Below are positions 1-32,446 of a DNA stretch of 64,000 bases, piece by piece. The position numbers were made by a program, and so were the translations under genes. The DNA is from a virus (lineage: Duplodnaviria > Caudoviricetes): the IMG/VR virus record IMGVR_UViG_3300050034_000334, one strand, 5' to 3'. Each line of letters begins with the position of its first letter. The stretch's first letter is position 1. The notes beneath the pieces are model-generated. The model did not search any database. It saw only the letters and a list, made by a program, of their open reading frames with translations, and was not told the origin of the DNA.

Positions 1-1159
1 GAAATGCCTGTTGCATGATCCAATCCCGTTCCGCCGGTGTCAAAGCATTGAACTTCGCCAGCAGTTCCGGAGGGAGATTGCCATAGGAATCCATGTGATT
101 GGCATCTTGCACGATTTCAGCTACATGTTCAGCAGACAAGGTGATCCTCTTGTTGTTGTACATGTTGAGAATGTCGGTACCAATCGCATCCCAAGTGAGC
201 TCAGCCGCTCTCTCTATCTCCTTGATCTCCTGAGGAGTCATGTTCTTGGGCTGTACGGCAGTGGATTTCCGTGTCTCAGTGCGCTCTTCACGCAACCGCT
301 CAAACTCTTCCTCGTCCTCATCTGTGATGTTATCGATGAACTCCTTGCGGAGTGCATCGGTCACCTTCTCATAGAGATCACGATTGTAGTATTCGTACTC
401 AAGATGGAACTTGTCGCGGATGATATCAGTGATGTAATCCCAGGCGCTGTCGCGACCGCCTTCGGATAGAGCTTCTCCGTACTCGAGCTCACCTTCTCCA
501 TGAAGGTACTCAGAGATGCGAGTGATGTATCCAGCCGCCTCTTCCTCTAGCTCCTGTGCAGCCTGTGCTTCGTAGTCTTCTGGCTCTGGCTCGGGCTTCA
601 GAGCTTCAACAAGATCTTCGAGGCCATTGCCTTCCTTCTTGGACTCCTCGAACAGCCAGTTCCCATTTTCGGAGATGTAGAGAGTTTCCCCTGGTTCTCT
701 GGGGACGGTCTTCTTCAGGTTGAAGGTCTTGCCATCTTCGTCTTCGTCGAAAAGACCTTCCCACTTGAATCCGTCTTGCTGGGCAGCCTCGCGCATTTCC
801 TCGACATTCTCAGGAACTGAGACATCAGAGAAAGTGTTGGGTGTACCTTCAACCAAGTCTGGATCGTCTTCGAAGTCGTCGGCTTTCTTTCCCACTGACC
901 CTGTTTTGGAGGACACTGTGCTCTCAGCACCCGCCTTATCCGGATCTCCATGCCAGTGACCATCACTGTGTTCGTAACAGCAGTAGTCTCCGTCATTCCG
1001 ATTCGCGTAGAAATCTTCTCCACATCCTGCACAAGTCTTAACTTCTAGGTGGTCGTCCTGGCGCACGTTTAAGTCGTGCTGATCACGCAACTCTTGATAG
1101 AGTTTAGCTCGCTCTTGAGGAGTCCTCTCAAATCCAGTTTTGACTGATGGGATCTTCAT
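1..1159 (-). CDS. Acidic hypothetical protein, 3' truncated by window edge (not in ORF track)
   Basis: Manual translation: GGAGAG RBS then ATG at 1159 (MKIPSVKTGFERTPQ...), frame open to position 1; D/E-rich. Confidence 0.85.
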   Translation of the reverse strand, partial: MKIPSVKTGFERTPQERAKLYQELRDQHDLNVRQDDHLEVKTCAGCGEDFYANRNDGDYCCYEHSDGHWHGDPDKAGAESTVSSKTGSVGKKADDFEDDPDLVEGTPNTFSDVSVPENVEEMREAAQQDGFKWEGLFDEDEDGKTFNLKKTVPREPGETLYISENGNWLFEESKKEGNGLEDLVEALKPEPEPEDYEAQAAQELEEEAAGYITRISEYLHGEGELEYGEALSEGGRDSAWDYITDIIRDKFHLEYEYYNRDLYEKVTDALRKEFIDNITDEDEEEFERLREERTETRKSTAVQPKNMTPQEIKEIERAAELTWDAIGTDILNMYNNKRITLSAEHVAEIVQDANHMDSYGNLPPELLAKFNALTPAERDWIMQQAF

Positions 1160-1167
1160 GTACTCTC

Positions 1168-2067
1168 CTACCGGATTACAAAGTTGAATTGATATCCTGC
1201 ATCAAGACATGCTTGACGTTTTGCTTTGTTTACGAGCCACCAATCATCACATCCAAACAAAGTCCAGTTGGATTTCACTTCTATCAACCAGTTCAACCTG
1301 GGAAGGTAGAAGTCGGGATAGTAACAGCTCTGCCTGCCTGTAATGGGATTGGTATACCATATCTTAGGTACGTTACCCTTTCCAGAAAGCACCTCTTTCT
1401 CAGCAAAACCAGATTTCAGCAATTCCAATAATACTCTGAATTCATATCCTTGAAGGTAGCGAACCTCTCCTGAAGGGGTTGTGTACGGTTTGGCCTGTAA
1501 CCTGGTTCTGAGACTTTTCTCATAGATTTCAGCATCCTGTGATGGGTTATCTACTCCATATCTTTCTCTACAAGAGGCTACTATCTTCCCTTTCACTATT
1601 TCTGATTGAAAAACAAATCGAGTACCATACTTTCTAAGACAAGTCTTCTGAATTTTTTGTTCTACTTGAACACTTTGTCTGACATTGTCAACACCATACA
1701 CCCTTTGGCAAGTATCATCACGCTTTTTCATCACTTCTTTTGAACACATTGGTGAATTACCACCATATCTATCCAAGCAAGTCCTACTCTTTTTAGCACG
1801 AACATCCGAGCTTGCTAGCGGATTAGTACCTCCAAATTTGTTGATAAAATACTGGTTTCGTTTAGCAACTATTTCAGGCATTAATGACGGGTTTCTAGAA
1901 CTCAAACAAGTCTTCAGTTTCCATCCGTTACAGCTGTTGTGTCTGGAACTGCAACACGGACGTCTCCCCTTTCCAAGAAAGAACTTGGCAGGTAGTGTAC
2001 ATCCATAGTTACAGATAAGGTTGATTTCTGGTGGTATAACTTCGACATGCGGCTTCCCAATGCTCAT
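1168..2067 (-). CDS. Putative homing endonuclease, PD-(D/E)XK type with CxxRYG repeats
   Basis: Repeats CLDRYGGNSP/CQRVYGVDNV/CRERYGVDNPSQ; C-terminal YYPDFYL...LIEVKS. Confidence 0.75.
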   Translation of the reverse strand: MSIGKPHVEVIPPEINLICNYGCTLPAKFFLGKGRRPCCSSRHNSCNGWKLKTCLSSRNPSLMPEIVAKRNQYFINKFGGTNPLASSDVRAKKSRTCLDRYGGNSPMCSKEVMKKRDDTCQRVYGVDNVRQSVQVEQKIQKTCLRKYGTRFVFQSEIVKGKIVASCRERYGVDNPSQDAEIYEKSLRTRLQAKPYTTPSGEVRYLQGYEFRVLLELLKSGFAEKEVLSGKGNVPKIWYTNPITGRQSCYYPDFYLPRLNWLIEVKSNWTLFGCDDWWLVNKAKRQACLDAGYQFNFVIR

Positions 2068-2085
2068 ACTTAGAGTCAGGAAGTC
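2068..2085 (-). promoter_or_regulatory. GACTT-type promoter-like motif abutting ATG (leaderless)
   Basis: GACTTCCTGACTCTAAGT-ATG, no SD sequence. Confidence 0.65.
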
Positions 2086-2112: not shown

Positions 2113-5100
2113 CTATTCCGCTTCTTTTGTTCCTGTAATGAACTCATACTCCATAGTAAGAGTGTCTTTGTTGATCTTATTGCAGCGGACGAAAACTTCG
2201 TAAATGTATCCATCTACAGGATCATTTCTCCAAACCGCACTTTGTGCCCATGCCCCGTTGATGATGTCCTGAAGATCTGTGTCATTGAGATCCGCCAGCA
2301 GTGAACGAATCCTGGATCCGTTGCTAATACCAGGCCCAGCACTCATGCCAACTGAGGATACCGGGGAAGTTGAAGACTCGACAAACTCCAGGCTGATTGA
2401 TCCCTTGCCTGGAACCTTGTTCAGCACTGGGCGAGAGGTCACCTTGAAAGCTGAAACGAATGCTGCAGCGATCTCACCAACCAGCAACTTGATGAACTCG
2501 GAGAACTGCTCCTTGTCCTGAGTCTTGTTGGCTGTCTTCTTCAGTCTCATAGAAGCCAGTAGAGCAGAGGGAATACCATCGTCAAGTTGACCATGGTACT
2601 CGTCCATGAAGTCTATACCTCTTATACCTTGCTCATTGCGAAGCGGAAGGCTGTCATTCAGGATCTGAGGCTGGCCCTGGATTCCCACACCCACCGCGCT
2701 GGGAGCCGTGGAGACATACTTGCCCGCATCGCTGACATCAAAGTCGTTGATCATCGGGTTGTTGGCCTCGTTCGGAGCAGGGTTCGGCATGGAGTCTACG
2801 ATCTCTCCTTGAATTTCAGGGTAGAACTCCTGCAGAGCCTGACCAGGATAGAAGAAGCTGAATCCGGCTGTGATTGGACGTTCGGAATTGGTTACCCAAT
2901 CCTCACGCTCGTCCTTGCGAACTGTCTCAGGGTTCTCGGTCTTTCCTTTGGGAGCACCTTCGACTACCACAGGGAGGTCTTCTTCAGCCGCCACAAGGAC
3001 GAATGCAGAAGCCTTCTTGGAAGGATCCGTTTTAACGAAATCCTTGATGTTGAAAGAAGCACCACTGGGCTTGGACTGTTTGGGCTTAGGATCAATCGCG
3101 TTTCTCAGATCGTAAGGTTTGGAGTCAAGTGGATGCTTGGCTTCTTCGGCCTTCTTGGACTTGGCCGCCTTGGCGTGTTCCTCTTCCTCGCGCAAAGCCG
3201 GGCAGCCATCGTAGTGCTGTTGAATTCCCTGAACGCTGGTGCAATTGCAGTCAGGGCACTTCTTCTCAGGAGGAGCCTGCTCGTCACGAGCAGCATGATG
3301 ACGTTGGCCTTCCTCGCGCTCAGACTTCAGCCGCTCGTCGAACTCAGGAGTGTGAGGCTCGTAACCCTCGGAGAAGTAGGGAGCCTCGCCGGCATTCTCT
3401 CCATAGACCGCTCCACAAGCGCAGGTGTAGACGTTCATGCCATCAGGAGCACCCTTGTCCTCTTCCCACTCATGACCTTCGGGAAGAGTGGATGAACCTG
3501 GATCCGGGTATGCCTTCTTGGAGGAAGCCATCCTGCCTTCTTGTGAATGTTCGTTGTTCCACATATCCGCTTCGCTACGATCTTCAGCAGCTGCATCAAC
3601 AGCCTCGAGGATTTCGTAGCTGTTGTATTCTTGAATGAGAGTTCTGATCAACTCGTCCATGAGATCGCCGGTGCGAGCATCGAGGCCAAAATCATTCCAT
3701 CCGCTTCCCACGACTTCATCTTCGCCATTGATGGCTCCAAGAGCCGTTTGGAAGATTAGATGAATCGTTTCGGCATCGAATCCATCGGCCTTCATCTCCT
3801 CAACAAGACTGTCGAGCTCGGTGAATTCCATGGCCGTCTTCACAATACCAGCGAACTTGTCCAACTTCTCGGTGGCAGGAATCTTGATTCCAGTGTGATC
3901 TTCTTCCTCACTGCTGGCGTCATTGATGGAGGTATCACCTTCGAGCCGCTTGGCTGTGTCCTGATCCTCCGGAGGATTAGACAGGGCCTTCTTGACACTT
4001 CCGCCCTTGTGAGTCACTTCGTTGTGGGGATCGTTGTCTTCATCCTCATCTTCGTCTTCGTAGATCCCCGACATGGACTCATCAGTCTGTTCTTCCGGCC
4101 ACTCAATCTTCTCTTCACCGTAGTCCTTGCCATAGTTCGCGATGAAGTCATCGACCCAGGAAGCATTGCCAAAGCTGATGCGCCACATCGCCAAGGTGCC
4201 AACATTGGGCTGGCTTTCCGGGGAGAAGATCAGGGCAAGATCAGTTCTACCCTCCTTGCCAGAGACGTTGCCATCAATGATGAATGCTTCCGAGAACACC
4301 GGGGCCTTGGCAATCCCTTCCTCTACCAGCATCTCTGCAATTCCGTTGACCCATGCCTGCTGAGGAGCTCCTGCTCCCATGATTACCAGACCAAGGTCCT
4401 TGTCGTGTGCCAGGAGTGCTGAGAATGGCTGATTGGATACCTGAGGCTCACCAGCTGTCTTCTTTACAGAAGCAGACTTCTCTTTTTCATGATCCTCAAC
4501 CTCAGCTTCGTGATCGTCTTCTTCCTTCTCGTGATCCTCAACCTCAGCTTCGTGATCTCCTTCTTCGTGAGCTTCCTCCTCAGCCTCGTGTTCGTGACTC
4601 TCTTCCTTGTGCTCTTCCTGCTCCTCAGCGAAGTAGTCCGCATTCCAATAGTCGTCTTCCTTGGGCTCAGCCTTCGGTTCGGACTTTGGCTCTTCAGATT
4701 TCGGTTCAGCAGCTGGTTCTGTTGACTCAGCCTTCGGTTCGGTAGATTCAGCCTTTGGCTCGGACTTCTTGGTTTCCTTGAGTTCTACCAGCGGGGCCGG
4801 TCCAAGGTCCTCAGTGATGGCATTCCAAATGCTGTCAAAGTCCATGTTGACATCAGCCGTCTTGGCATCCACCACACCAGCGGGACGGAGCTTGGCAAGG
4901 CGAGCTTCGCGATCAGCCGCCTTCTTGCTCGCCTTGCTTGAGAATCCTCTTGAATGAGTGGCCGCCGTCTTTCCGCAAATGCATTCAGAGGCTGGACGAT
5001 CACAGGCATCACAGTAACCATCATCAGGAACGTCTTCTTCTGGTTTCTGATACGGAGCAGTGAATGCGGAAACCTTGGGAGCCGGAGCTTCAATCCTGTC

Positions 5101-6321
5101 CACTTCCATGGAGTGAAGCCGACTGATGGCATCGGCATCATTTGCGACACCGGGGGTCCTCAGCATTCCAGCGCCCGCATTGCCACTGGTGTTCTCGCCG
5201 CCGTTGCCAGCCGACTTGAAATACTCATGTGAACGGAGGGCCTTCTCAGCTTCCTCCTTGGATGCGTGAGAGTCAAGAATCTTCCCATCCTTGACATTGC
5301 ACCACGGGGCTTCCTTACCCTCTGAATCCTTGTGACCAGGCTTGTGCTCGATGGTTGCGAACTTGGACTCGAACTTGACTGAAGCACCCTTGCTGTTTTC
5401 GATGTTCATGTCAGAGGTGAATGATCCAGGCTCTCCGTAATCCGGATGGGCGCGAATTCCTTCAGGTTCCTTGATTGTGGTCTTTCCCACTTCCTCAGGA
5501 GCCTTGATCTCCTCGCCCTTGACTGTGAAGTCCTTGGTCAGTTCAGCCAAGACCTGAGTCTCACCAGGTTCCAGACCGTTATTCTCGGCCAGGATGATGG
5601 CTGCAGTCTTTCTGCTGAGCACAGCATAAGGCTTGCGAGCCGATGCCTTCTTGTTGACCTCATCACCCTTCTCCAACTCAGGGAAATTCTTGAGAGGATT
5701 TTCAGTGATGAACGGATACTGCATCTTCGGAGTCACGTCACAGACATCCACGCGAGCGGTGTCGATGTCAGTGGTGAGTGTTTCGAAAGCACTGGACAAG
5801 GCTGGATCGAAGTAGCAAGAGAAGATCAGGTGGCGAACCAGGTTGGCCAGTTCCTGATCATCCTTCGTGTACTTGAACATGACATATTCGCGAGGATTGG
5901 TCCAGGCCGGCAAGAACATGACGATGGATTCATACTTGCCCGACTGTTCGTTCTTGAAGAGCCGGTCTTTGATCTCCTGGTAGTCGGCCTTGCTGTATTC
6001 ATCGAACTCGGACTCACCAATCTTGTGCTCGAGAAGATCTGAAACCTCCTCGCCACCGAACTCACGGACAATTGCTCCGTAGAGGAGAGCCAGAGGGAAG
6101 TCTTCAAGGTTGTCTGCCACTGAAGCAGGAACAATCATGACGCGCCCAATGACAATGTGCTGACGAAGACCCTCGTAGAAGACCTGAAGAGACTGAATCG
6201 TTCCAGAACTCTTGGCCTTGTCCTCGCCCTGTTTGATAGCGGCGACGACTTTCGCGAGTAGATGATCTCCGATCATGAATGACTGCCAAGATCTTGCGGA
6301 GACTGTTCCCATTGGTTGCAT
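2113..6321 (-). CDS. Large acidic modular protein with K-x-A motifs, probable internal virion protein
   Basis: 1402 aa ORF; acidic blocks separated by KTA/KKA motifs. Confidence 0.6.
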   Translation of the reverse strand: MQPMGTVSARSWQSFMIGDHLLAKVVAAIKQGEDKAKSSGTIQSLQVFYEGLRQHIVIGRVMIVPASVADNLEDFPLALLYGAIVREFGGEEVSDLLEHKIGESEFDEYSKADYQEIKDRLFKNEQSGKYESIVMFLPAWTNPREYVMFKYTKDDQELANLVRHLIFSCYFDPALSSAFETLTTDIDTARVDVCDVTPKMQYPFITENPLKNFPELEKGDEVNKKASARKPYAVLSRKTAAIILAENNGLEPGETQVLAELTKDFTVKGEEIKAPEEVGKTTIKEPEGIRAHPDYGEPGSFTSDMNIENSKGASVKFESKFATIEHKPGHKDSEGKEAPWCNVKDGKILDSHASKEEAEKALRSHEYFKSAGNGGENTSGNAGAGMLRTPGVANDADAISRLHSMEVDRIEAPAPKVSAFTAPYQKPEEDVPDDGYCDACDRPASECICGKTAATHSRGFSSKASKKAADREARLAKLRPAGVVDAKTADVNMDFDSIWNAITEDLGPAPLVELKETKKSEPKAESTEPKAESTEPAAEPKSEEPKSEPKAEPKEDDYWNADYFAEEQEEHKEESHEHEAEEEAHEEGDHEAEVEDHEKEEDDHEAEVEDHEKEKSASVKKTAGEPQVSNQPFSALLAHDKDLGLVIMGAGAPQQAWVNGIAEMLVEEGIAKAPVFSEAFIIDGNVSGKEGRTDLALIFSPESQPNVGTLAMWRISFGNASWVDDFIANYGKDYGEEKIEWPEEQTDESMSGIYEDEDEDEDNDPHNEVTHKGGSVKKALSNPPEDQDTAKRLEGDTSINDASSEEEDHTGIKIPATEKLDKFAGIVKTAMEFTELDSLVEEMKADGFDAETIHLIFQTALGAINGEDEVVGSGWNDFGLDARTGDLMDELIRTLIQEYNSYEILEAVDAAAEDRSEADMWNNEHSQEGRMASSKKAYPDPGSSTLPEGHEWEEDKGAPDGMNVYTCACGAVYGENAGEAPYFSEGYEPHTPEFDERLKSEREEGQRHHAARDEQAPPEKKCPDCNCTSVQGIQQHYDGCPALREEEEHAKAAKSKKAEEAKHPLDSKPYDLRNAIDPKPKQSKPSGASFNIKDFVKTDPSKKASAFVLVAAEEDLPVVVEGAPKGKTENPETVRKDEREDWVTNSERPITAGFSFFYPGQALQEFYPEIQGEIVDSMPNPAPNEANNPMINDFDVSDAGKYVSTAPSAVGVGIQGQPQILNDSLPLRNEQGIRGIDFMDEYHGQLDDGIPSALLASMRLKKTANKTQDKEQFSEFIKLLVGEIAAAFVSAFKVTSRPVLNKVPGKGSISLEFVESSTSPVSSVGMSAGPGISNGSRIRSLLADLNDTDLQDIINGAWAQSAVWRNDPVDGYIYEVFVRCNKINKDTLTMEYEFITGTKEAE
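4490..4557. repeat. Direct repeat (26 bp copies, 42 bp period) encoding DHEAEVEDHEKE
   Basis: tgatcctcaacctcagcttcgtgatc at 4490 and 4532; EPKAEST repeats follow at about 4660-4765. Confidence 0.85.
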
Positions 6322-6324
6322 GTC

Positions 6325-7409: not shown

Positions 7410-8728
7410 TAAATCTCCAATGAGAAGTGAGAGCCAACTTCAATCTCGTATCCTTTGGGCTGGATGATGTCAATGTCTCCCAGCTTGGCAGTCGACGAGA
7501 GGTCGTATTCATTAAGCATCTGATGACCATCTTTCGGTGCACCAGAAGCAATCTTGTGGTTGGAAGAAGCCGTGCTCATCCCAGGGAAGCTCAGCAAAGT
7601 CCCGCCAGTGAGACCGCAGTGCATGCTGCTGCGATAAGCACAAGAGGAACACTTGGGTGCTCCAACGATGGCGTTCTGGACTCCCAATTTCCCCTTGAGG
7701 AAACGGCAGTCAATCTGGGAGAGAGCGATCTTGGTTCCTGCAGTCTTCAATCCACCCACGAACTTCTTCACGACATCAGCCGCCCGGACTACGCCAGCGG
7801 TCTTGACACCGAATGAATAAATCTTCTCGAGGGATGCTCCAGCAGTGTGAGCCTTGGAAATTGCAGCAACGGTGAATTCCGGAGAGGTGGTCTTGATGGT
7901 AGAAGCTGTCTTGGCCGCCGTGGTTCTCTGGGTGACCTTGTCATCCACTCGGACGATAGGAGCCTTGTCAGCGGTCTTCTGCTCGGCGCCATCACGGATC
8001 TTGGCAAGGTGTTCGGCTGCAGTAAACTGCTTCTTTTCCATGAACTTGTTGGGTTCCCAATAGTCCATGCCGTTCACATCTTCTGTTCCGCCGGCATCCA
8101 GATACTCGTGGGCAGAATTCCAGTTGAAGATGACATTTTCAGCCAGCTTCTTCTTGAGATAGTTGCTGATCTTCTCCTTGGAGTGACCGGCAGCTATGGC
8201 CTTGCGAATGCCCGCCCGGATGCTCTCATCAGAGATACGCTTGCCCTTGGTTTCGACTGTGGTGCCCTTGGCTTTCTCAAGTGAGATTGAGACATCCGCC
8301 AGCGCATTGTCATCCGAAGTGACCGCCGCCGCGCGATTCTTCCAGTCGTTGGGGACGGAAGAAACTCGAACGGTATCAAACGGATCTCCAAGAGGATCTC
8401 TGTCGTCGATTGGTTGCGAAACTTGCGCAGTCAAACCCTCTTCAGAGCAACCATTGTTATAGCAGCGAAGTACACCCAGTTGGTCCTTCTGCAATGGTTT
8501 ACTGCATGCCGGGCAATTCTGGTCGTACCCAGAGGCAAAGTGAACACCACCGTGGACTTCTCCTCGGTCACCTTCAATGGAACGTGTGAATGCCTTGTCA
8601 ACCTCGTCATGAGTCAGGTTCAAGAGTTCCTGACCAGAAGCTCTGGCTGCATTGAGTCCCACATCCTCATAGTCCGATGGTCCGTCAAGGAACGCGTCGA
8701 TGATACTCGAATACAGTTTTTCTGCCAT
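7409..8728 (-). CDS. Hypothetical K-x-A motif protein with Cys-rich segments
   Basis: 439 aa; CPAC...CYNNGC and CSSCAY...HC clusters; QKTA, AKTA, HKIA motifs. Confidence 0.75.
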   Translation of the reverse strand: MAEKLYSSIIDAFLDGPSDYEDVGLNAARASGQELLNLTHDEVDKAFTRSIEGDRGEVHGGVHFASGYDQNCPACSKPLQKDQLGVLRCYNNGCSEEGLTAQVSQPIDDRDPLGDPFDTVRVSSVPNDWKNRAAAVTSDDNALADVSISLEKAKGTTVETKGKRISDESIRAGIRKAIAAGHSKEKISNYLKKKLAENVIFNWNSAHEYLDAGGTEDVNGMDYWEPNKFMEKKQFTAAEHLAKIRDGAEQKTADKAPIVRVDDKVTQRTTAAKTASTIKTTSPEFTVAAISKAHTAGASLEKIYSFGVKTAGVVRAADVVKKFVGGLKTAGTKIALSQIDCRFLKGKLGVQNAIVGAPKCSSCAYRSSMHCGLTGGTLLSFPGMSTASSNHKIASGAPKDGHQMLNEYDLSSTAKLGDIDIIQPKGYEIEVGSHFSLEI

Positions 8729-9519
8729 TACAACCCTCCTTGGTATAGGCCGGACTTGGACCTATTTCTTTCAGCAATTCGAATTGCCTGAGCAGCGCGA
8801 CGTTCGGGAGTCCATGCCGATACCATTTTCTTGCAAAATTCGGAAGAACGCTTCTGACCTAGGTTTGAAAGACGACTTTTTAGACGCTCTTCTTGTGAAA
8901 CTACCCTTCCCTTGGAGGATTCTCTGTGCTTTCGACGAGTTTCATCAGTTACACCTGCTCTAATGGCTGAAGAAGAGTTTTCTCTGTAGTCTGGATCTCT
9001 CCATAAACTTTCCATTCTTACAGCAAGTAAATCGTAATTGACAGAAGGAGTTTTTCCCTTCCTCTGAGCACAAAATAGAGCTCTTGTGAAATTTGAATGA
9101 GTCCTGCCGGTACTACTGACCCTGTGTTTCTCTCGTGTATCCTCAGAAACGAACCTTCCTGTCATTGCTACACGCAGCTTCTGCTTTGTGGATTCTGAGG
9201 AAGTTCTCCCACGCATAGGAGCACCTGCTTGAAGAGCGATGTTGTACCCACTATGAACAGCATCGAAAGCATCAATGGCTAGCTGTTCTTTCTCCAGAAG
9301 TTGCTCTGTAGGACAGTAAATAATCACGTCGAATTCAAAAACGGATTCTCCATACTTATTGAAGGCATTCTGAAGTTTGGGGTTGTAATGCTTGTTTGTT
9401 TTCAACTCTCCGAAGTGTTCCTGGCATCTCTTTGATAAATCGGCACTGCTTCCTATGTACACTTTTTGGTTCAAAGTGTTTAGTATCCTGTAAACCCCGC
9501 AATTTGACCAATCATTCAT
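8728..9519 (-). CDS. GIY-YIG homing endonuclease with NUMOD3-like repeats
   Basis: GVYRILNTLNQKVYIGSS; HYNPKLQNAFNKYG; basic repeat tail. Confidence 0.9.
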   Translation of the reverse strand: MNDWSNCGVYRILNTLNQKVYIGSSADLSKRCQEHFGELKTNKHYNPKLQNAFNKYGESVFEFDVIIYCPTEQLLEKEQLAIDAFDAVHSGYNIALQAGAPMRGRTSSESTKQKLRVAMTGRFVSEDTREKHRVSSTGRTHSNFTRALFCAQRKGKTPSVNYDLLAVRMESLWRDPDYRENSSSAIRAGVTDETRRKHRESSKGRVVSQEERLKSRLSNLGQKRSSEFCKKMVSAWTPERRAAQAIRIAERNRSKSGLYQGGL

Positions 9520-9842
9520 CAGAACGTGAGATCTCCTAAGATTTGACTCAGAAAGTTACCAGGTGAATCCGCTGGTGCTCCAGCTATTGACTCTCCGTTG
9601 TCAACTTCATCAACAGACAGTCGTATAATCTTTCCTCCCTGTACTTTCCAAAAGTTTTTTGTTGATACGCACCTGTATGCATTTCCAGCCACACGAATCA
9701 GCCCCATCTCCTTTATCTTTTGGCGGAGTTCTGGGGTTATGGATGCTGTCTTGAAATGATGTTCAGTAGGAGCAGAAGAGGGTTGTTCACTCACCTGTCG
9801 ACTTCCGCCCAAACCATGACTGCTATACCGAAATCGATCCAT
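9519..9842 (-). CDS. Hypothetical protein
   Basis: 107 aa, AGGAG RBS, FKTA motif. Confidence 0.75.
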   Translation of the reverse strand: MDRFRYSSHGLGGSRQVSEQPSSAPTEHHFKTASITPELRQKIKEMGLIRVAGNAYRCVSTKNFWKVQGGKIIRLSVDEVDNGESIAGAPADSPGNFLSQILGDLTF

Positions 9843-11915: not shown

Positions 11916-13823
11916 CTACTTCCTGACAGGACGAGCACGAGTGAGCTTCGAACCGAACTTCTTCGAAGGATCATCGTTGCCCATCCAGTAGTTGTCGGAG
12001 CCAGAGGCTTCCTTGACTTCATCCTCGATAGGCTCCTCTTCGACAGGTGGCGGTGGCAGCGCAGGCTCTTCTTCGATGTGCTCTTCTTCCATGCCCATGC
12101 CCGGCTCTTCCTCGGTGTGAATTTCCACACCAGAGTTTTCGGCCAGGTTCTCGATGGCGCCAGCGGCTTCATCCAGGAGTCCATACACTTCGCTCAAGGC
12201 CTCGCCGAACTGCTCCGGCTCTTCCTCAGCCAGCTTCTTCAGGCCGGCAGCGAACTTGGAGGCTGCTGCCTTCTTCTCGGTCGGACTCGCTGTCTTCGGT
12301 GGATCGGAGAGATTGAGATTGTCTCTCATGTTGAGGAAGGAAGCACGAAGCGAGCCGAAAACATTGGCCAGTTCCGTAAGGGCTGACTTCACTTCCATGG
12401 GTTCATTCTTCGCAAGGAGAACCAACTTGTGCTGCTTGGGTGCCGCAGTGGCTGTTCTCGCCTTCTTGCGATTCGCGATTTTCTTGAGCAACTCTTGACG
12501 AGTAGTTGTTGAAGTTGCGGCCATGATGGGTTTCTCCTGTTTTGAAGCGTTCAAACTTGTGTGCAAGATCTGATTTGGAAGATCTGGAGGAACGGTCACC
12601 CGCTCCTTGCGCTCTTGAGGTTGACCAGGTGTGGGAGGAGCTCCTTCACTTCCTGGAGGTGGTGTATTCTGAGGTGCCCCATTGGGATTCACCACAGGAA
12701 TCTCTTCTTCCTGACCGGGAGCAGCTGGTGCTGTGCTCGAACCTGGAGTGGTGTGGTAGTAATCAGCCGTCTTCAGGGAGCTAAGCAACAGAGAGGATTT
12801 CTTGGAAGGAGTCTCAACTCCTCCAATGCGATCACGAATCAGATTCAGAATGCTGTGTGATGGATCGTACTCCGAGAACTCCATCATCAGCTTGCCGAAC
12901 TCCTTGTAGAGTTGCTTGAGACGATCGCCGCCCAAGCCGGTGTCACTCTTGAACTTGTCGAGGAACTCGGACTTCTTGCCATGTTCAGACTCGACAATGT
13001 AGTCGAAGATCATCGCCATCACCTTGGCGATCTTTTCAGACTTCTTGGTCTCCTTGACAAATTCATAGAACTCGTCGCGGATGGTCTTGAGTTCGTCCTC
13101 TTCCTCGATGTCCTTCACGCTCCTGTTGGCCTGAGCATGCTCTTCAGTGTCGAGGATGTTGAACTCGGTACCATCGTCTTCGGATTCTTGAATCAGTGAG
13201 ACCTGATGCTGTGAAGGCTCCTCTGAATCTTTGCCTTTCTTCCAATCCACATGCCTGTCGATGAAGTCTTTGGCATCACTGAGACGATAGCCAAAAATGT
13301 ATCTCAGATAGCCAGTTATCTGCTTTTCAAGAGGCTTGGTTCTGTCCTCTTCTGGGACCCTGTTCGGATCGAACTTGGAAAGAGTCTTGCGATCATACAA
13401 CTCTCTGACGAGAACGTGAGAGATCGCTTCATCCACCAAGTCCTCATCAAGTCCACCGGCTGCTCCCTCTCCATAGAGACGAGAGATGTAGTTCTTTTGG
13501 AACCACTTGTCCCAGTTCTGGGCTTCGTCAATAGGATAACCGGATTCCTTGATTGCCTCCTTGACGATCTTGTCGATCTCCAACCCATAGACTGCGATCA
13601 TTCGCAATGTTGCCACGAAACGCATCATCTTGGGTGAAGTGATCAATCCCTTCTTGGCCAACTCGGAGGAGCTCAAGGTCAGCTTTTGTGTTCCAGCTAT
13701 GTTTGTAAGCTGGTATTTCTCTCCAGATGGGGAGGCAATTTTCGCCTTCACCCGGAAGGAACGTCCTTCCCTGGTTGTGATTATCTGACCTGGATCAATC
13801 GAAATGTGAGCATTCAGTATCAT
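11916..13823 (-). CDS. Modular K-x-A motif protein containing a sigma-70-like domain
   Basis: EDLVDEA...SKFDP...ITGYLRYIF...VSL...GLGGDRLKQLYKEFGKLM; KTA motifs in C-terminal half. Confidence 0.55.
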   Translation of the reverse strand: MILNAHISIDPGQIITTREGRSFRVKAKIASPSGEKYQLTNIAGTQKLTLSSSELAKKGLITSPKMMRFVATLRMIAVYGLEIDKIVKEAIKESGYPIDEAQNWDKWFQKNYISRLYGEGAAGGLDEDLVDEAISHVLVRELYDRKTLSKFDPNRVPEEDRTKPLEKQITGYLRYIFGYRLSDAKDFIDRHVDWKKGKDSEEPSQHQVSLIQESEDDGTEFNILDTEEHAQANRSVKDIEEEDELKTIRDEFYEFVKETKKSEKIAKVMAMIFDYIVESEHGKKSEFLDKFKSDTGLGGDRLKQLYKEFGKLMMEFSEYDPSHSILNLIRDRIGGVETPSKKSSLLLSSLKTADYYHTTPGSSTAPAAPGQEEEIPVVNPNGAPQNTPPPGSEGAPPTPGQPQERKERVTVPPDLPNQILHTSLNASKQEKPIMAATSTTTRQELLKKIANRKKARTATAAPKQHKLVLLAKNEPMEVKSALTELANVFGSLRASFLNMRDNLNLSDPPKTASPTEKKAAASKFAAGLKKLAEEEPEQFGEALSEVYGLLDEAAGAIENLAENSGVEIHTEEEPGMGMEEEHIEEEPALPPPPVEEEPIEDEVKEASGSDNYWMGNDDPSKKFGSKLTRARPVRK

Positions 13824-13986: not shown

Positions 13987-14193
13987 ATGGCTAAAATCGC
14001 AAAGCAGGATCGGGAAACCATGAACGCTCTTTTCACCAAGGAGCTTTCTCGGATGACAGGCACCAAGATCGCCGGGGAGAAAGACCTCCAGGCCTTCAAG
14101 GACCATGAGGAGTACATGGCAACTCTGTCGTCTGTGCTGGCTGATGACAAGACCGAAGGCGGCCAGGACCCTAACGCGAATTTCTTTGAGTGA
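13987..14193 (+). CDS. Small hypothetical protein
   Basis: AGGAG RBS before ATG 13987; GACTA-N6-TCTCAGA motif at 13939-13956. Confidence 0.65.
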   Translation: MAKIAKQDRETMNALFTKELSRMTGTKIAGEKDLQAFKDHEEYMATLSSVLADDKTEGGQDPNANFFE

Positions 14194-18745: not shown

Positions 18746-19236
18746 AGGTACACTCCAATCGGTTGCAACGTGCCATCAACATCAGCGTAGACGAAAGGCC
18801 CAAATTCAGTAATTTCCAGATACGACAGTACCTTTGGTACTCCACAAACTACAGCAAAACCGTAAAGTCTCGATTCAATGGAATCAAGCACCTCAATCAG
18901 TTGTGGTACACTACTAATCATTGCGTAAATGAAAGTTCCAGAATTATCAACCGCCAGGTAAGGAGAAACTGTAAATGGCGGGTTTGGCATGTGGTGAATC
19001 ACCTGTACAACATTGTCCGTAGTTAGCGAGATTCCCAAGTACAGCTGGTAAGTTGTCGTGGCAGCGTCATACAAGAAAGATTTCACCTGAATTTGAATAC
19101 CATCCACCCAAACCTCAACATCAGTCATGGGATTGAAATTCACCGTTAGGGCATCCACAGTTCGACTGAATGGTCCTCCTATCGAAGAGATCAGGTTGAC
19201 CACGTTCCCAAGGAACTCTGTGCTAACCTGTGACAT
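18742..19236 (-). CDS. Hypothetical virion protein
   Basis: 164 aa beta-rich ORF in operon. Confidence 0.7.
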   Translation of the reverse strand: MSQVSTEFLGNVVNLISSIGGPFSRTVDALTVNFNPMTDVEVWVDGIQIQVKSFLYDAATTTYQLYLGISLTTDNVVQVIHHMPNPPFTVSPYLAVDNSGTFIYAMISSVPQLIEVLDSIESRLYGFAVVCGVPKVLSYLEITEFGPFVYADVDGTLQPIGVYL

Positions 19237-21478
19237 CTTCGGTCTCCTCTTTCTCTTCGTCTAATGAAGACACCCTGAAATTCTGGTTCCTGTTGCGATT
19301 CTTCTTCCAGTTGTTGAACTTGTCATCCCGCATCTTCTTCAACCTCTTGCGATCGCCTTCTGCTTGTTCTTCGAGCTTGCGCTTTTCCTCCACAAGCATT
19401 TGGTCGATGAGGTCGTGATTCTGTGAATGGCTTTCCTCTTCGTCTTTAACATGCACTTCCTCTTTTCGAGGTTGTTGCAACTTTTCTTTCTGTTCCGCCG
19501 GGGTGGGCTGTGCTTCAACTGCAGCAGGAGCAGTGCGCTCAATTTCACGCTCGGTCTGTTCGTCAAGCTCAGCTTCTTCCTGCAGAAGACGATCACGCTC
19601 CTTGCGCTGCATCTCCTCAAGATCTTCTTTCTCCTTGGGAGTTCTGCGCTTCTTCTTGAGCAGCTGACGCTGGCGCATAGCCTCCTGCTCACGATCAAGA
19701 CGAGTAGGAGCTTTGGTAGGAGTCTGCTTGTATTCCTCAACCACCTTCTCACGAACCAGGTTCTGAATATTGTGCTGAACAGCCGGAAGGATGCGTTCAC
19801 ACACGGCCTTAATGTGTTTACAAATCAGAGCATTCGTTCTTAAATCGAGCCTTTCTTTGGGAGCTTGAAGTTTTGGTCTGGGTTCTCCTTCTAAAGCATC
19901 ACGTTCATGAAGGTTCCACTGATTTCCCCAGTACAGGAACGCCGGGCAATTATGTACCACCACTCCGTTAGCAATGAACGATTCGTCTTCTTCTACTGTC
20001 AAATCAAAAAATGATGGAGGACAGGATACCTGCTTCGCATAATTAAGGCAACGAAGAAATCCTTCTCTCCATTCCAAATCTCTAGATTCAGAAAACACTT
20101 TTCCCAGAGATTTTTCAACTCGTTCTTTATCTCTTTCACGTAGCCATTTGAACATTCGAAGAACTAGAGCAGGGTACTGTCTGTAGCTAATTCGCAGTCT
20201 AGTGTTAGTAAAACTTTGCCAAACTCCTTGGCTAAAGAGGAAAAAAGAGATTTGTTGAAGAAGATTTCTAGAGTAAGAAACAATATCTTGAGTGTCGTAC
20301 TCGATGTTTCCATCCCCTAGAGCATGACTAGAGATCAAATTCCACATTGCTTCCACATCCCAAGCGAGTATTTCCTCTGATAGTCTCTTGGTTAGACTAC
20401 CTTGCCCACACAATTCATACATCTGCTTAGCGAACTGGGAATCTTTCACTCTGACATTTATCCAACTATACTCAGAGTTGTCCTCAATCTCGATTCGAGC
20501 ATTAGGACCAAGGTAGCGACGTGCTCGTTCTGCTGTATCCTTGACTACAGTGTCTTTTTCGTTACGATTGTAGGTAAATGTTACTTCGTAGGCAGAGTAC
20601 TGCTCTCCGTCAACCACCACCTGAGCTGCTTTAACTTTCTTGGTAGACCTTCTTTTATGTAAATGCAAGCAACCTTCAGCGAGGTAGTATCCTGTCAAAG
20701 CAGCAAGATCTGGATCAACTACCTTAGTTCCTGTCCACGCGAACTTAGGGAAGTACAGTGTCTCTCGGTCAACTATTTCCAAGGGAGTTTTCCAAAAAGA
20801 AGAAATCTCTGGTTTAACCAACAGTCTAGTATTTCCTAGAGTGTTATGTCCGGATAAGAAATTTCTACCAAGTCTCTTTTTAACAACAGAAGAATACTTT
20901 CCTGAAGTGGGCCATAGGGGTGCTCCACATCCACAAGCACAATTTTCTCTTCCTCTGACTACAGCAATAGGATGATCTTCAGACAAAATAAGCGGAGTCT
21001 GGTACCCTTTGGCTTTAACCTCCCAAGCCTGTTCTCCTTCTCTAGGTTTTCTTTCCGACACCGCTGTGACTTTCTTAGCTCTTCCCTTGTGAGTGATGAC
21101 ATGATCACCTACAGATACTTCATCTATTCTCTTCTCTGTTCCATCAGCCATCCTAATCATGCTGTCTAGAGCTACACAGCTGCAGTTCACTTTGATATCC
21201 AGATCATTGGCTCTCATTTCCGGAGTAACCTTAGACACGTCAAAGTGAACTTTCACATCATGACCGTTAGGATCGCTAGTTTCAAGATTACATTTGACAT
21301 TATAACGAAGGAAAAGGTCTTTGGGATCAGAAGCCTCAAGATGGGGAACGCAACCTGGTCTATTTTTCACAGAAAAACTGTTTGTTTGGGACACTAATTC
21401 CGGCAAAGATATAGCCAGCTTCACCTTCTTGGTAAGGTAATCCGACAATTTGAAAGAAGACCAGATTTCGCTCATCAT
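19223..21478 (-). CDS. SWIM zinc-finger protein interrupted by an intein
   Basis: Spliced product reads VNCS|CPAFLYWG...CKH (CxC-Xn-CxH); charged coiled-coil C-terminus. Confidence 0.8.
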   Translation of the reverse strand: MMSEIWSSFKLSDYLTKKVKLAISLPELVSQTNSFSVKNRPGCVPHLEASDPKDLFLRYNVKCNLETSDPNGHDVKVHFDVSKVTPEMRANDLDIKVNCSCVALDSMIRMADGTEKRIDEVSVGDHVITHKGRAKKVTAVSERKPREGEQAWEVKAKGYQTPLILSEDHPIAVVRGRENCACGCGAPLWPTSGKYSSVVKKRLGRNFLSGHNTLGNTRLLVKPEISSFWKTPLEIVDRETLYFPKFAWTGTKVVDPDLAALTGYYLAEGCLHLHKRRSTKKVKAAQVVVDGEQYSAYEVTFTYNRNEKDTVVKDTAERARRYLGPNARIEIEDNSEYSWINVRVKDSQFAKQMYELCGQGSLTKRLSEEILAWDVEAMWNLISSHALGDGNIEYDTQDIVSYSRNLLQQISFFLFSQGVWQSFTNTRLRISYRQYPALVLRMFKWLRERDKERVEKSLGKVFSESRDLEWREGFLRCLNYAKQVSCPPSFFDLTVEEDESFIANGVVVHNCPAFLYWGNQWNLHERDALEGEPRPKLQAPKERLDLRTNALICKHIKAVCERILPAVQHNIQNLVREKVVEEYKQTPTKAPTRLDREQEAMRQRQLLKKKRRTPKEKEDLEEMQRKERDRLLQEEAELDEQTEREIERTAPAAVEAQPTPAEQKEKLQQPRKEEVHVKDEEESHSQNHDLIDQMLVEEKRKLEEQAEGDRKRLKKMRDDKFNNWKKNRNRNQNFRVSSLDEEKEETEDVTG
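19949..21178 (-). mobile_element. Intein (410 aa) with LAGLIDADG endonuclease
   Basis: Begins CVALDSMIRMADG, block B LSEDHP, LTGYYLAEG and SHALGDG, ends FDLTVEEDESFIANGVVVHN followed by Cys+1. Confidence 0.92.
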
Positions 21479-29291: not shown

Positions 29292-29780
29292 CTACTTCAC
29301 AACTTTGACAAGCTGAGCACCGTAGTCTACTCCCGGTGGAGGTGGCGGGACGGTTTGTTGGATAGGCTCGATCCAGGCAGCTATAGATCTCCGGACGTCG
29401 TTGACGGACACCTGCGCATTCATCCGAGGATACCAGCGATTGGTCAGTTCCACACGGCCATCCCAGTCGTATTCCTCGATGATCCACTGCTGTCCATCAT
29501 GAGACTGGAACACGGCTCCAGGATCCATGTACATGAAGAAGATTTCGTCTCCTTGGATCGGAGATAGAGGATTTGGAATCTGTTCATCATGTGGATTCGG
29601 CCTGAACTGAGCGAAGGTCGAGATCGCCACATCATCCGGATCTCCCACGATCACTTGTAGTTCCATGTTCGTGGAAGGATGGTCATCAGTCGTGAGAATA
29701 GCAGCGGTCTTGGTGGTTCCTTCCTCTGCAACTCCAGCGAACGATGCAAGCATGTTTGCGAGTTTTGATTCTTTGGCCAT
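29292..29780 (-). CDS. Hypothetical protein
   Basis: Start moved to MAKES after GGAG; TKTA motif. Confidence 0.7.
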   Translation of the reverse strand: MAKESKLANMLASFAGVAEEGTTKTAAILTTDDHPSTNMELQVIVGDPDDVAISTFAQFRPNPHDEQIPNPLSPIQGDEIFFMYMDPGAVFQSHDGQQWIIEEYDWDGRVELTNRWYPRMNAQVSVNDVRRSIAAWIEPIQQTVPPPPPGVDYGAQLVKVVK

Positions 29781-29797: not shown

Positions 29798-30406
29798 TTA
29801 GATGGATTGTGAAGTCAAACAAGGAGGAATGAACACTTCTTTTCCTTCTCGCATCTGCTCTTCAGTTGTCAGGCGAGATTGATTCAGAGATTTATCTCTG
29901 CTCCAGTTATTCTGCTGCCGGCGCAGTCGCACAGTCTCTGCTATTCGTTGCTTTGTAGCCTCTGAATGCTTAGTAACTCCTCCGTGTTGAGTGGAACCCT
30001 TTGGTCTAGACAATCTCATTTTCTGTCGTGTTTCTTCCGGTAGACACTTGTTCCAAAAAGGATGATTTTCACCTCTCACTGCCTTGCTGATTCGTTTCCT
30101 AACATCTTTGTTAGGTTCTCCACCATCAGCTCCCTTTGTCATATTGTACCCATCGACAAAAGTTCCAAGTTTCTCTATCCAGAAGACTTCAGCCTCATTC
30201 AGTTCTTCAGGACTATCACAATGTTGAATTGTACTGATGTCAAATGCTGCCTCTCCGTGCTTTCTAAGGGATCTATGCAAGTAATAACGCGATCCTCTAG
30301 ATGATTCCAGCCGGTGTCTATACCAGCGATCATCAGGAGTATCCTTGATGCTCTGGCCTACATACATCTTACCATTTATCCTGTTTCGTACCAAGTAGAC
30401 TATCAT
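29798..30406 (-). CDS. GIY-YIG homing endonuclease with NUMOD3
   Basis: MIVYLVRNRINGKMYVGQS; GENHPFW; ATGA overlap with upstream stop. Confidence 0.88.
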   Translation of the reverse strand: MIVYLVRNRINGKMYVGQSIKDTPDDRWYRHRLESSRGSRYYLHRSLRKHGEAAFDISTIQHCDSPEELNEAEVFWIEKLGTFVDGYNMTKGADGGEPNKDVRKRISKAVRGENHPFWNKCLPEETRQKMRLSRPKGSTQHGGVTKHSEATKQRIAETVRLRRQQNNWSRDKSLNQSRLTTEEQMREGKEVFIPPCLTSQSI

Positions 30407-31923
30407 GACATTATTGCCCCCCAAACCGTTGTCCTTCCAACTTCTGGATTGGGATTTTCCCACTGAGCATCTGGCTGATTGGTCTTTTCGAAGATAGGTT
30501 CCGGATCGACGCCAGGTACTCCATCGTTGACATTCGCCTGCAATGGATTGTACAAAGTGGGAGGATATGGATTCCCAGCAATGACCGGAATGAGGTAACG
30601 AGTGTCTTTGGGATTCAGCAACTTGACATTGAACTCTTGCTGAGCGATAGCACCCTGAGGCTGCGTATAGTTCATGTCGAACACGATCAGCCGTTCACCG
30701 TTCCGTCGAATGATGAGGTCACCATTTTGAATGATGGGAGTCGGTCCAAGGTAGGATTTCGAGATGCGCTCTACTTTCCGGCCTCCCTCCTCAATGGTGG
30801 TATTGGTTGCCGTGTCTGGCGGAATGTAGACAATGTCGAATGGTCCGTAGTATCCGCCAACCCATCCTGTTTCGTAACACACTGGGCAGCCGTGACGAGG
30901 CTCTCCAACTCCGTCTCCCACGCAGCCACACGCTGTACCTCGCGACATCCGGAACATGATAAATGCTGGCTCTCCTACTCTCTCAAAGAGCCAGGCATTT
31001 CTCCGTATCTGCTCCTTGAGCATGTAATTCAGACGTTCAATCGTCTGAGTGTTGACGATTTCCGATCCTGCAGCACCGGGTGCGTGGAGATCTCCACTTG
31101 CTCCTACTGGGACCACGGTGTAGTATGTCCGCACCATGTTGGTATAGATGTCGACGAAGTTCGTCAACTGGTTGTAAGTCACCTTGAAGGTAGTGACACT
31201 GGCTAGAGCCGAAATTGGGAAGTTGGAAACTGCACCACCGATTGGCAGAGTCTTGTCAACATTGATCCAGATGGCCTTGTCAATTCCACTCACCATCGCA
31301 GGGCGAACAGTCGAGGTTGCAACGAGGCTCGATATCACCGTGAGAGTATCTGTAGGAACGGTTGGTGCCAGCGAAAGGGTATATGGTCCACCATAAGCGA
31401 CAAGGGTGGCAGTCACTCCGATGGACGCAGCTGTGATGGCCGCCGCAAGCAGTACGATGCTATTGTTGGAGGTGGTTGTGAAAACCACAGGAGTTGATAC
31501 TCCCACTTGTAGAGAAATGGTTCCGGAGAGAACATCGGTACCAGAAACTGTGGTGAGGGAACCATTCAGGAAATTCAGATCCGTTGCAAGTATGACACTG
31601 ACATCCTCAGGAGAAGTGGCCACCTGAGGTCTGGTCTCCACAATCCCTGAATATGGAACGTCTGGAATCTGAAATGACCAGCGACCAAAAGTTCCCTTTT
31701 CAATCCAGTCGGAATCTTGCACTGTGTAAGTGGTTGAGGCTAGAGTTGAAATGTCACGATAGAACTGACCAGGAATTGGAGCAAGATTGAGCAGTTGCCA
31801 GTTGGCTGGATAGTCGATAGCTCGGTAGACATTGTATCCCACTGTGGCCTTGGGATCATTTGGCCACCACAGGTCACGGCTCCCGACATAGCTCGAATTG
31901 AGGACTACCAACCCACAAATCAT
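30403..31923 (-). CDS. Probable head-tail joining (neck) protein
   Basis: FN3-like N-term (VGYNVYRA); CGC...CPVCYETGWVGGY motif seen in large-phage neck proteins. Confidence 0.5.
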   Translation of the reverse strand: MICGLVVLNSSYVGSRDLWWPNDPKATVGYNVYRAIDYPANWQLLNLAPIPGQFYRDISTLASTTYTVQDSDWIEKGTFGRWSFQIPDVPYSGIVETRPQVATSPEDVSVILATDLNFLNGSLTTVSGTDVLSGTISLQVGVSTPVVFTTTSNNSIVLLAAAITAASIGVTATLVAYGGPYTLSLAPTVPTDTLTVISSLVATSTVRPAMVSGIDKAIWINVDKTLPIGGAVSNFPISALASVTTFKVTYNQLTNFVDIYTNMVRTYYTVVPVGASGDLHAPGAAGSEIVNTQTIERLNYMLKEQIRRNAWLFERVGEPAFIMFRMSRGTACGCVGDGVGEPRHGCPVCYETGWVGGYYGPFDIVYIPPDTATNTTIEEGGRKVERISKSYLGPTPIIQNGDLIIRRNGERLIVFDMNYTQPQGAIAQQEFNVKLLNPKDTRYLIPVIAGNPYPPTLYNPLQANVNDGVPGVDPEPIFEKTNQPDAQWENPNPEVGRTTVWGAIMS

Positions 31924-31951
31924 ATCTCTTCCTCAATCGAGAAAGAGAAAG

Positions 31952-32446
31952 TTAGGATTTTGCCTTGAACCATTCGGGGTGTTTCTTCTTGGCTGGATTA
32001 AGGAACTCTGTTTCGTGCTCTTCAGGATGGTAGAATTCCTTCTTCTTGTCCTCAAATTGAGAGGGCATCCACTTCGTCACCTGTTCCTTGCACTCCAACT
32101 CAGCCCTCTTCTCGTTAGGGAGCGCGTCATAGTCTTCTTGTGAAATTCCCCAGTGTTCTTCAGGGAAATCCATCCACTTCCCAGATGGGACCGGGTAAGG
32201 ATCTCCTGCTTTCATCCAGATCTGGGAGTGCTCCCAGTCACTGAGTACATAACAAGTGTACGTGCCATCGCTGTAAGAAGCCATAGGCTGGATTGTCTTC
32301 TTCAGGAATCCAATCACAGTCCGAACACAGCGGTTGCGGAACTCTTGGACCATCGGGGAGAAGAATGGATCCACCTTGTGATCCAGCTTGATCTCCTGAA
32401 TGATCTCTTCCGCCGATTTTGCTTTCTTGAGAAGTTTTGAGTTCAT
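31952..32446 (-). CDS. Hypothetical protein
   Basis: 164 aa; starts MNSKLLKKA. Confidence 0.7.
   Translation of the reverse strand: MNSKLLKKAKSAEEIIQEIKLDHKVDPFFSPMVQEFRNRCVRTVIGFLKKTIQPMASYSDGTYTCYVLSDWEHSQIWMKAGDPYPVPSGKWMDFPEEHWGISQEDYDALPNEKRAELECKEQVTKWMPSQFEDKKKEFYHPEEHETEFLNPAKKKHPEWFKAKS

Follow-up and report, generated by a model that had tools for sequence, protein, structure and literature searches.

The 64,000-nucleotide stretch of DNA from an uncultured soil jumbo phage analysed here (the window), which covers bases 60399-124398 of the 143.6-kilobase (kb) IMG/VR virus record IMGVR_UViG_3300050034_000334 (CheckV completeness ~46%), encodes three large proteins, P0001, P0002 and P0003, in which a Lys and an Ala separated by one residue (K-x-A) recur many times. 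The question raised by this locus is whether the motif marks the places at which a head-maturation protease cuts these proteins. An initial annotation, made from the letters of the window, had proposed as much, and had read the proteins as possible polyproteins from which many small cargo domains would be released inside the capsid. From the comparisons described below, we consider, with a probability of about 0.62, that P0001, P0002 and P0003 are head-associated precursors and substrates of a prohead protease of the phage G type, which would cut at K-x-A followed by a small residue (K-x-A-small). The motif is probably the cutting site of the head protease because it is enriched, is located at module junctions and flanks the protease in related phages.

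Among cultured phages, the closest is Tunturiibacter phage Tunturi_5, a myovirus with a genome of 308.7 kb whose host is an Acidobacteriota bacterium from tundra soil (PMC11924767). The gene order is common to both phages, with P0001, P0002 and P0003 corresponding to Tunturi_5 gp350, gp348 and gp345, and Tunturi_5 gp344, gp323, gp324 and gp319 have smaller open reading frames (ORFs) of the window as counterparts. PHROG and Pfam scans assigned no family to any of the three large proteins, and megablast of window positions 2113-8728 against phage records gave no match. The first 35 kb of the window contained hardly any PHROG or Pfam family, the exceptions being six homing endonucleases and one tail-fibre domain.

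The motif is concentrated in a few proteins

All the tetrapeptides that the initial annotation had quoted for the ORFs at 2113-6321, 7409-8728 and 11916-13823 were found in the translations. We compared motif counts with those of 5000 shuffles made within 20-residue blocks, and give them as observed versus expected. In P0001, P0002 and P0003 together, K-x-A occurred 42 versus 21.8 times, K-x-A followed by Ala, Ser, Gly or Asp (K-x-A-[ASGD]) 24 versus 6.6 times, and KTA 12 versus 1.37 times, counts that were reached in 0 of the 5000 shuffles. The reverse motif, A-x-K, was flat in the same proteins (21 versus 21.7), as were the controls R-x-A, K-x-S, K-x-G, E-x-A and ATK. Taken singly, P0001 contained 22 versus 10.3 K-x-A, 12 versus 3.2 K-x-A-[ASGD] and 6 versus 0.5 KTA; P0002 contained 4 versus 0.4 KTA; and P0003 contained 13 versus 4.7 K-x-A and 7 versus 1.3 K-x-A-[ASGD].

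Five large proteins encoded upstream of the window, which carry GNAT, pyrophosphatase and NUDIX domains, gave 42 versus 22.3, 24 versus 6.0 and 10 versus 1.1 for K-x-A, K-x-A-[ASGD] and KTA, respectively, and our reading most likely extends to these multi-enzyme proteins. The corresponding figures were 35 versus 24.6, 7 versus 6.7 and 3 versus 1.6 for the 26 other ORFs in the first 35 kb of the window, and 29 versus 32.8, 9 versus 8.5 and 1 versus 1.9 for the 38 ORFs beyond 35 kb. The excess of K-x-A-small is confined to few proteins, with the other 64 window ORFs at background. The enrichment proposed as a check in the initial annotation holds for the three large ORFs. Over the whole 143.6-kb fragment, KTA ranked third among the over-represented tripeptides (29 versus 10.5) and K-x-A second of 400 gapped pairs (256 versus 183). 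The over-represented motif ends in Ala, not Glu, and the controls E-x-A and K-x-E were not comparably enriched.

Around the motif in these proteins, Ser and Val were preferred before the Lys, and Thr and Lys at the x position, where Pro, Gly, Asn and Asp were depleted; after the Ala, the preferred residues were Ala, Ser, Gly and Asp, followed by Val and Phe. These preferences fit the subsite pattern of a protease. The proposed signal is most likely Lys, any residue except Pro, Gly, Asn or Asp (mostly Thr or Lys), Ala, and then Ala, Ser, Gly or Asp; cleavage would probably occur after the Ala.

Motif sites bound shuffled cassettes in the P0001 family

P0001 consists of a conserved N-domain (about amino acids (aa) 1-260), a middle part made of shuffled cassettes, and a conserved C-domain in two parts (about aa 1150-1402). 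The family is a mosaic, in which the middle cassettes occur in varying order and in different proteins, and each of its 14 non-redundant members (13 database homologues and gp350) contained about twice the expected number of K-x-A and about four times that of K-x-A-[ASGD]. An Atlas look-up of the N-domain gave nothing usable.

At the conserved ends of the protein, the motif is retained in alignments while its middle residue changes. At the end of the N-domain, where P0001 has KKAS (aa 224), 8 of 9 aligned homologues have K-x-A-S, x being K, T, I, R or Q, and the neighbouring KTAA (aa 238) is kept in 6 of 9. The C-domain of the family opens with K-x-A-[GA]-F in alignments of divergent sequences. 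Between the two C-terminal blocks, at the position of KTAN (aa 1262), all but one of 13 aligned homologues have K-x-A-[A/N/G/S] (x = T, K, V, R or S); an indel-rich stretch lies directly before this site, and conserved blocks lie on either side. At all three places, x varies freely.

In the middle part, several cassettes of the family carry the motif at both ends in more than one host protein. The cassette of about 60 aa that lies between KGAS and KSAG in P0001 was found at other positions in P0101, P0105, P0106 and P0107, bounded by KVAS and KDAA in P0107 and by KVAG and KTAA in P0101. The block common to P0001 and Tunturi_5 gp350 begins exactly at KTAD in both proteins (aa 487 and 748, respectively), and the block resembling phage G gp597 (aa 627-730 of P0001) begins just past KTAG (aa 621). 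Further on, the homology blocks to P0098 and P0099 stop at aa 824-830, and the block to P0098 begins at aa 932, close to the sites listed in Table 1. Over the family, 185 of 524 internal ends of homology blocks were located within 3 residues of a K-x-A, as compared with 51.5 +/- 10 at random and a maximum of 85 in 1000 trials, a figure that is indicative only, since block ends are not independent. With a 6-residue window, 249 block ends were near K-x-A versus 91.7 (2.7-fold), and five control motifs reached at most 1.8-fold.

The gp597-like block (window 4133-4441, minus strand) is 37% identical to part of gp597 of Bacillus phage G, and a Bacillus megaphage therefore has this module in common with a lineage of soil phages of Acidobacteriota.

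Motif sites in P0002 and P0003

P0002 contains a conserved Cys/His-rich C-terminal domain (aa 287-400). In 80 non-redundant homologues, K-x-A occurred 952 versus 432 times and K-x-A-[SAGD] 540 versus 137 times, and several columns keep the K, the A and the small residue while x varies. In an AlphaFold2 (AF2) model of P0002 (mean predicted local distance difference test score (pLDDT) 66), aa 249-286, which contain KTAD and KTAS, form a disordered linker ahead of this domain (pLDDT 46-54); an alignment column near these two sites is K[RK]AA in 70 of 79 homologues. Past the domain's folded core, HKIAS lies in a coil in the model, and its column is HK[IVT]A[ASDE] in 56 of 80 homologues.

P0003 is built of an N-module (aa 8-353), a Pro/Gly-rich linker, a helical C-module (aa 440-610) and an acidic tail, and among its 194 homologues the N- and C-modules were also found as separate genes. 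Most homologue matches to the N-module stop at aa 316-354, and the alignment of P0003 with a relative of 28% identity (L030:2176-4029) ends at an identical SSLKTA, beyond which the two proteins diverge. Within the C-module, the column of PKTAS is P-K-x-A-[S/T/A] in most of 45 aligned representatives, with x being T, E, A, M, G, S or N, and stand-alone C-module genes (150-250 aa) retain P-K-x-A-[S/T]. An Atlas look-up of the C-module gave weak helical-hairpin matches only. The statement of the initial annotation that domains are separated by the motif agrees with most junctions and fails for KTA309 and KTA328 of P0002, which lie in confidently modelled helices.

Two further observations concern the P0003 N-module. 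The C-terminal extensions to which it is joined in relatives differ greatly, and the longest has about 1900 aa. Language-model features of aa 1-353 (window 12765-13823, minus strand) resemble those of phage clusters with Sigma70_r2 (score 0.93), which we regard as a lead only.

Table 1 Positions of the motif-bearing proteins and of the individual motif sites in the window
Feature	Position	Strand	Remark
P0001, 1402-aa acidic mosaic protein	2113..6321	-	homologue of Tunturi_5 gp350
KKAS (aa 224) and KTAA (aa 238), end of P0001 N-domain	5602..5652	-	conserved
Cassette of ~60 aa between KGAS (aa 311) and KSAG (aa 369) of P0001	5209..5391	-	
KTAA (aa 451), KTAD (aa 487) and KTAG (aa 621) of P0001, each starting another cassette	4453..4971	-	
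KFAG/KTAM (aa 822, 828) and KKAY (aa 935) of P0001	3511..3858	-	
KTAN (aa 1262) between two conserved C-terminal sub-domains of P0001	2530..2538	-	
P0002, 439 aa	7409..8728	-	homologue of Tunturi_5 gp348
KTAD (aa 251) and KTAS (aa 273), disordered linker ahead of P0002 C-domain	7904..7978	-	
KTAG (aa 309) and KTAG (aa 328) of P0002	7739..7804	-	doubtful cleavage sites
HKIAS (aa 392) of P0002	7547..7555	-	conserved column
P0003, 635 aa	11916..13823	-	homologue of Tunturi_5 gp345
SSLKTA (aa 348-353), exact end of P0003 N-module	12765..12773	-	
PKTAS (aa 509-513) within P0003 C-module	12288..12296	-	
VKEAS (aa 603-607) ahead of conserved C-terminal GSD tail of P0003	12006..12014	-	only in three closest representatives
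107-aa protein, single FKTAS (aa 30-34)	9519..9842	-	no site at aligned position of L016 homologue
68-aa protein, homologue of Tunturi_5 gp344	13987..14193	+	KIA at aa 3 and aa 27
P0004, 751 aa, intein-bearing	19223..21478	-	K-x-A 3 versus 3.7, no enrichment
162-aa protein, homologue of Tunturi_5 gp323	29292..29780	-	KLA (aa 6; 29757-29765), KTA (aa 24; 29703-29711)
164-aa protein, KKA and KSA at aa 7-12	31952..32446	-	K-x-A 3 versus 1.0, shuffle p 0.046

The motif flanks a head-maturation protease in related phages

The initial annotation had suggested that the prohead protease be located. No prohead protease, capsid or scaffold gene was found on the 143.6-kb fragment (~46% complete), which weighs against our reading, and the search succeeded in relatives. 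Tunturi_5 gp331, encoded close to the capsid protein gp334 at a distance of a few genes, matches PHROG 18299 (phrog_18299), 'head maturation protease' (E 3.8e-13), and the protease was also obtained from 13 related metagenomic loci. The presumed protease family most likely comprises Tunturi_5 gp331, phage G gp19 and the N-terminal domain of Bxz1-like gp100. One 75-kb contig bears a P0002 homologue together with a protease that has K-x-A flanks (L016, L020).

In Tunturi_5 and the 13 metagenomic relatives, nearly invariant K-x-A sites lie on either side of the catalytic core of the protease. In 11 protease sequences aligned from these loci, K5, A7, K270 and A272 were at least 90% conserved, all outside the catalytic core; in the closer relatives, K-x-A-S occurs once more, around residue 33. 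Beyond the C-terminal K-x-A, which sets the core apart, three sequences have an extension of about 280 residues, and the others have a tail of about 20. Bacillus phage G gp19, 28% identical to the protease, has two K-x-A sites before the core and two after it (VKIAG, VKTAA, EKVAS, LKIAS). In gp100 of Pleione, a Bxz1-like mycobacteriophage, NNKTAGY comes immediately after the protease domain, and K-x-A occurs 17 versus 7.7 times. By sequence, putative sites stand on the flanks of the protease core, as would be expected of an enzyme that processes itself. The Pleione protein (L035:7013-11122) is 1369 aa long and annotated as hypothetical; the protease domain forms its N-terminus and is fused to a giant extension.

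The distribution of the motif in Tunturi_5 points in the same direction. The four most enriched of its 366 ORFs were gp328 (14 versus 2.7), gp350, gp332 and gp348; gp328 is annotated as a DNA ejection protein, gp332 adjoins the protease, and both are within a few genes of it. Once the 15 most-enriched ORFs were set aside, the rest of Tunturi_5 was at background (116 versus 101).

The head module of the relatives also resembles that of phage G. The capsid protein of the lineage matches phage G gp27 (PDB 6WKK) with E 1.4e-52, and the order of the capsid and protease genes is alike in the relatives (not seen on this fragment) and phage G.

Assignment of the protease to known families was attempted separately. 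Neither the fragment nor Tunturi_5 matched PF03420 (Peptidase_S77) or PF04586 (Peptidase_S78). By sequence, the protease was rejected as a Peptidase_S77 member, with an hhalign probability below 1% against T4 gp21 and PF03420 absent from the Pfam matches of the 11 sequences at E<=5, and as a Peptidase_S78 member, with a probability below 1% against HK97 gp4 and one of the 11 sequences matching PF14550 at E 0.2 only. Peptidase_S21 had no match in the Pfam scan of the family, and a search of the family profile against PDB sequences gave no match. The AF2 model built from the 11-sequence alignment had a pLDDT of only 43, too low for a fold search.

A proposed mechanism and its alternatives

In the mechanism that we propose, the protease and its substrates would co-assemble in the prohead. 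The protease would release itself at the K-x-A on both flanks of its catalytic core, and would then cut the cargo precursors, as well as its neighbour that resembles a scaffold, at module junctions. The modules would be released or removed before or during DNA packaging, and surviving modules would exit with the DNA. We infer in this way both the packaging of the proteins into the head and their ejection.

Besides the missing protease gene, several observations weigh against this mechanism. The C-domain of P0001 itself starts with ITAG in place of the K-x-A-G of its homologues, and Lys-containing control motifs were mildly enriched near block ends (1.5-1.8-fold). KTA309 and KTA328 of P0002 lie within helices (H300-311 and H327-330) of a domain modelled with pLDDT 88-97, and are doubtful as cleavage sites because of that position; some conserved K-x-A columns are plainly structural, such as KCAS in a Cys motif and TKIAL. 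The capsid protein has two K-x-A sites (aa 19 and 26) that the lineage conserves, but phage G gp27 has neither of them, and the alignment with its solved chain begins at residue 1. As a sign of propeptide removal these sites are ambiguous, and the capsid protein was therefore not counted as evidence. Neither the fold class of the protease nor its catalytic residues were settled by profile, hhalign or AF2 comparisons.

The two KTA sites and the several conserved columns inside folded or structural elements, together with the capsid sites without counterpart in phage G and the M-x-K-x-A found at the N-terminus of several small neighbours, would suit a conserved junction signal that is never cut, either a docking or capsid-targeting peptide for the scaffold or portal, or a helix cap at module ends. 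We regard this as unlikely, because a structural motif is not expected to keep only the K, the A and the small residue while x and the flanks vary, nor to appear at both ends of the protease core in three lineages at about 28% identity, and because disordered linkers contain many copies of the motif per protein. Removal of propeptides alone, in which clustered sites would fragment N-terminal or internal propeptides that leave the head, with one mature protein per gene, has a precedent in SPN3US, where 13 of 14 mapped cuts remove N-terminal propeptides that are themselves cut several times (PMC10052503), and the linker sites of P0002 directly precede a single well-folded conserved C-domain. It is nevertheless improbable as the full explanation, given that the cassettes of the P0001 family are shuffled independently, each with its bounding sites, and that the polyproteins outside the window join recognisable enzymes (GNAT, pyrophosphatase, NUDIX). 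The 'many small cargo domains' of the initial annotation may be too strong a wording: clustered sites may serve for the fragmentation and removal of propeptides, as in SPN3US, leaving one or two mature domains.

Cutting outside the prohead by another protease, encoded by the host or by the phage (gp106 of Tunturi_5, an HslV-like peptidase, is an example of the latter), seems more improbable still. Tunturi_5 does encode this HslV-family peptidase, and the packaging of P0001, P0002 and P0003 is itself a deduction; against this, the motif flanks the head protease itself, the scaffold-like gene beside it shows one of the strongest enrichments, and non-head ORFs are at background. That the motif is a product of chance or of the composition of Lys/Ala-rich linkers, for which the mild enrichment of the Lys-containing controls near block ends would speak, is hardly credible: the excess was seen independently in every family member and in Tunturi_5, and for the three large ORFs this explanation was tested and rejected, as local-block shuffles never reached the observed counts and the reverse motif was flat. 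Cleavage by the head protease, as the initial annotation had it, remains the preferred reading for a motif that is located at junctions, leaves x free, flanks the protease of the lineage and is concentrated in four head-associated proteins of Tunturi_5, although the protease gene is absent from the fragment.

Comparison with known systems

A parallel is provided by phiKZ gp175 and SPN3US gp245, which recognise A/S/G-x-Glu and whose cleavages were mapped by mass spectrometry (PMC10052503, PMC5694885). As in these phages, a jumbo myovirus would have many head proteins with a three-residue motif whose middle position is free, a self-cleavage site of the protease past the catalytic domain, and several copies of the motif per propeptide, the sites in our case being predicted. 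In contrast, their motif ends in Glu, whereas the one predicted here is Lys-x-Ala-small, and no sequence relation was detected. In T4, gp21 acts on the internal proteins IPI-III and Alt, cutting the capsid-targeting sequence at L/I-x-E. Peptidase_S77 was not detected here, the residue at the cleaved (P1) position differs, and no common N-terminal leader was found among the large proteins here; an all-against-all BLAST of the fragment proteins for a targeting domain common to the large proteins gave nothing useful. The proposed system would thus work like those of phiKZ/SPN3US and T4, but lies outside their protease families by sequence and has a different motif. Herpesvirus assemblin cuts at V/L-x-Ala|Ser, and so resembles the presumed protease in the Ala at the presumed P1 position, in the Ser or small residue that follows, and in being a capsid-maturation protease. 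It differs in having a hydrophobic P3 residue instead of Lys, and the Pfam scan of the protease family gave no Peptidase_S21 match.

Phage G has a similar head module, with a capsid protein similar to gp27, a protease similar to gp19 (28%), the same gene order, and K-x-A on both sides of the gp19 core, but its capsid protein is without the two N-terminal K-x-A sites. We found no report of the cleavage specificity of gp19 (PMC12484599), and, in the limited literature covered, no specificity for K-x-A was described for any phage, including phage G and those of the Bxz1 type. Very large enzyme-bearing proteins in a capsid are also known from the Dar system of phage P1, in which DarB and its partners are packaged into the head (PMC9024508), and Tunturi_5 gp350 is annotated 'DarB-like', by automatic annotation. 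However, an N-terminal signal targets DarB, which is not known to be divided into modules by cleavage, and P0001 has no Pfam or PHROG match.

If confirmed, the motif would provide a cleavage rule for a prohead-protease family without known specificity that is present in the cultured model phages Tunturi_5, phage G and cluster C mycobacteriophages. For many soil jumbo phages, it would then be possible to predict from sequence which mature proteins the virion contains and which cargo is ejected, and the evolution of mosaic multi-enzyme proteins would be explained by the shuffling of cassettes between cleavage sites. More tentatively, and with the balance rather against it, K-x-A-small could be the ancestral specificity of a widespread protease family (soil Acidobacteriota jumbo phages, phage G and about 200 Bxz1-like mycobacteriophages), and could underlie the loading, cutting and delivery of cassettes, including a packaged sigma-like factor (the P0003 N-module). 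Since the protease is found in three cultured phages, the reading can be tested directly.

Smaller ORFs and neighbouring genes

The initial annotation had also listed smaller ORFs as carriers of the motif, which cannot be judged by counts because they have one to three sites each; conservation separated them. The sites of the ORF at 29292-29780, where the count alone is not significant, correspond to KFA and KRA in Tunturi_5 gp323, and those of 13987-14193, a gene too short for statistics, are conserved as KIA and KVA in Tunturi_5 gp344, so that both are weakly supported as motif ORFs. The claim did not hold for 9519-9842, where the site is missing from the L016 homologue, or for P0004 (19223-21478), which is not part of the motif system. 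For the ORF at 31952-32446, neither Tunturi_5 nor the fetched loci contained a homologue. The KTA of 33207-34268, a homologue of a head-tail connector located past the end of the region annotated initially, was rejected because it is not conserved.

The portal homologue, which lies outside the window (G000:C1:47674-50241), has a 440-aa N-terminal extension not present in the Tunturi_5 portal and contains 4 versus 1.3 K-x-A-[ASGD]. The phage G portal has K-x-A-[AS] at residues 18, 55 and 625. Processing of the portal is therefore possible.

The intein of P0004 gave weak Pfam matches to Intein_splicing, Hom_end_hint and Hint_2, all below the Pfam curated cut-offs, and appears to be specific to this phage, because Tunturi_5 gp336 has only 376 aa and aligns past the insert. 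The homologue of gp344 (window 13957-14193, plus strand) is opposite in strand to all its neighbours and co-oriented with them in Tunturi_5, which looks like a local inversion. Between the structural genes there are six free-standing homing-endonuclease genes, at window positions 1168-2067, 6325-6876, 8728-9519, 10648-11355, 29798-30463 and 32449-33153, all on the minus strand. Four have a GIY-YIG-type PHROG match, one is of the HNH type and one is of another type, and none of the six is found at the corresponding positions of Tunturi_5. Six transfer RNA genes (Cys, Gln, three Thr and Ile) are located late in the window, at 57227-59513 on the minus strand.

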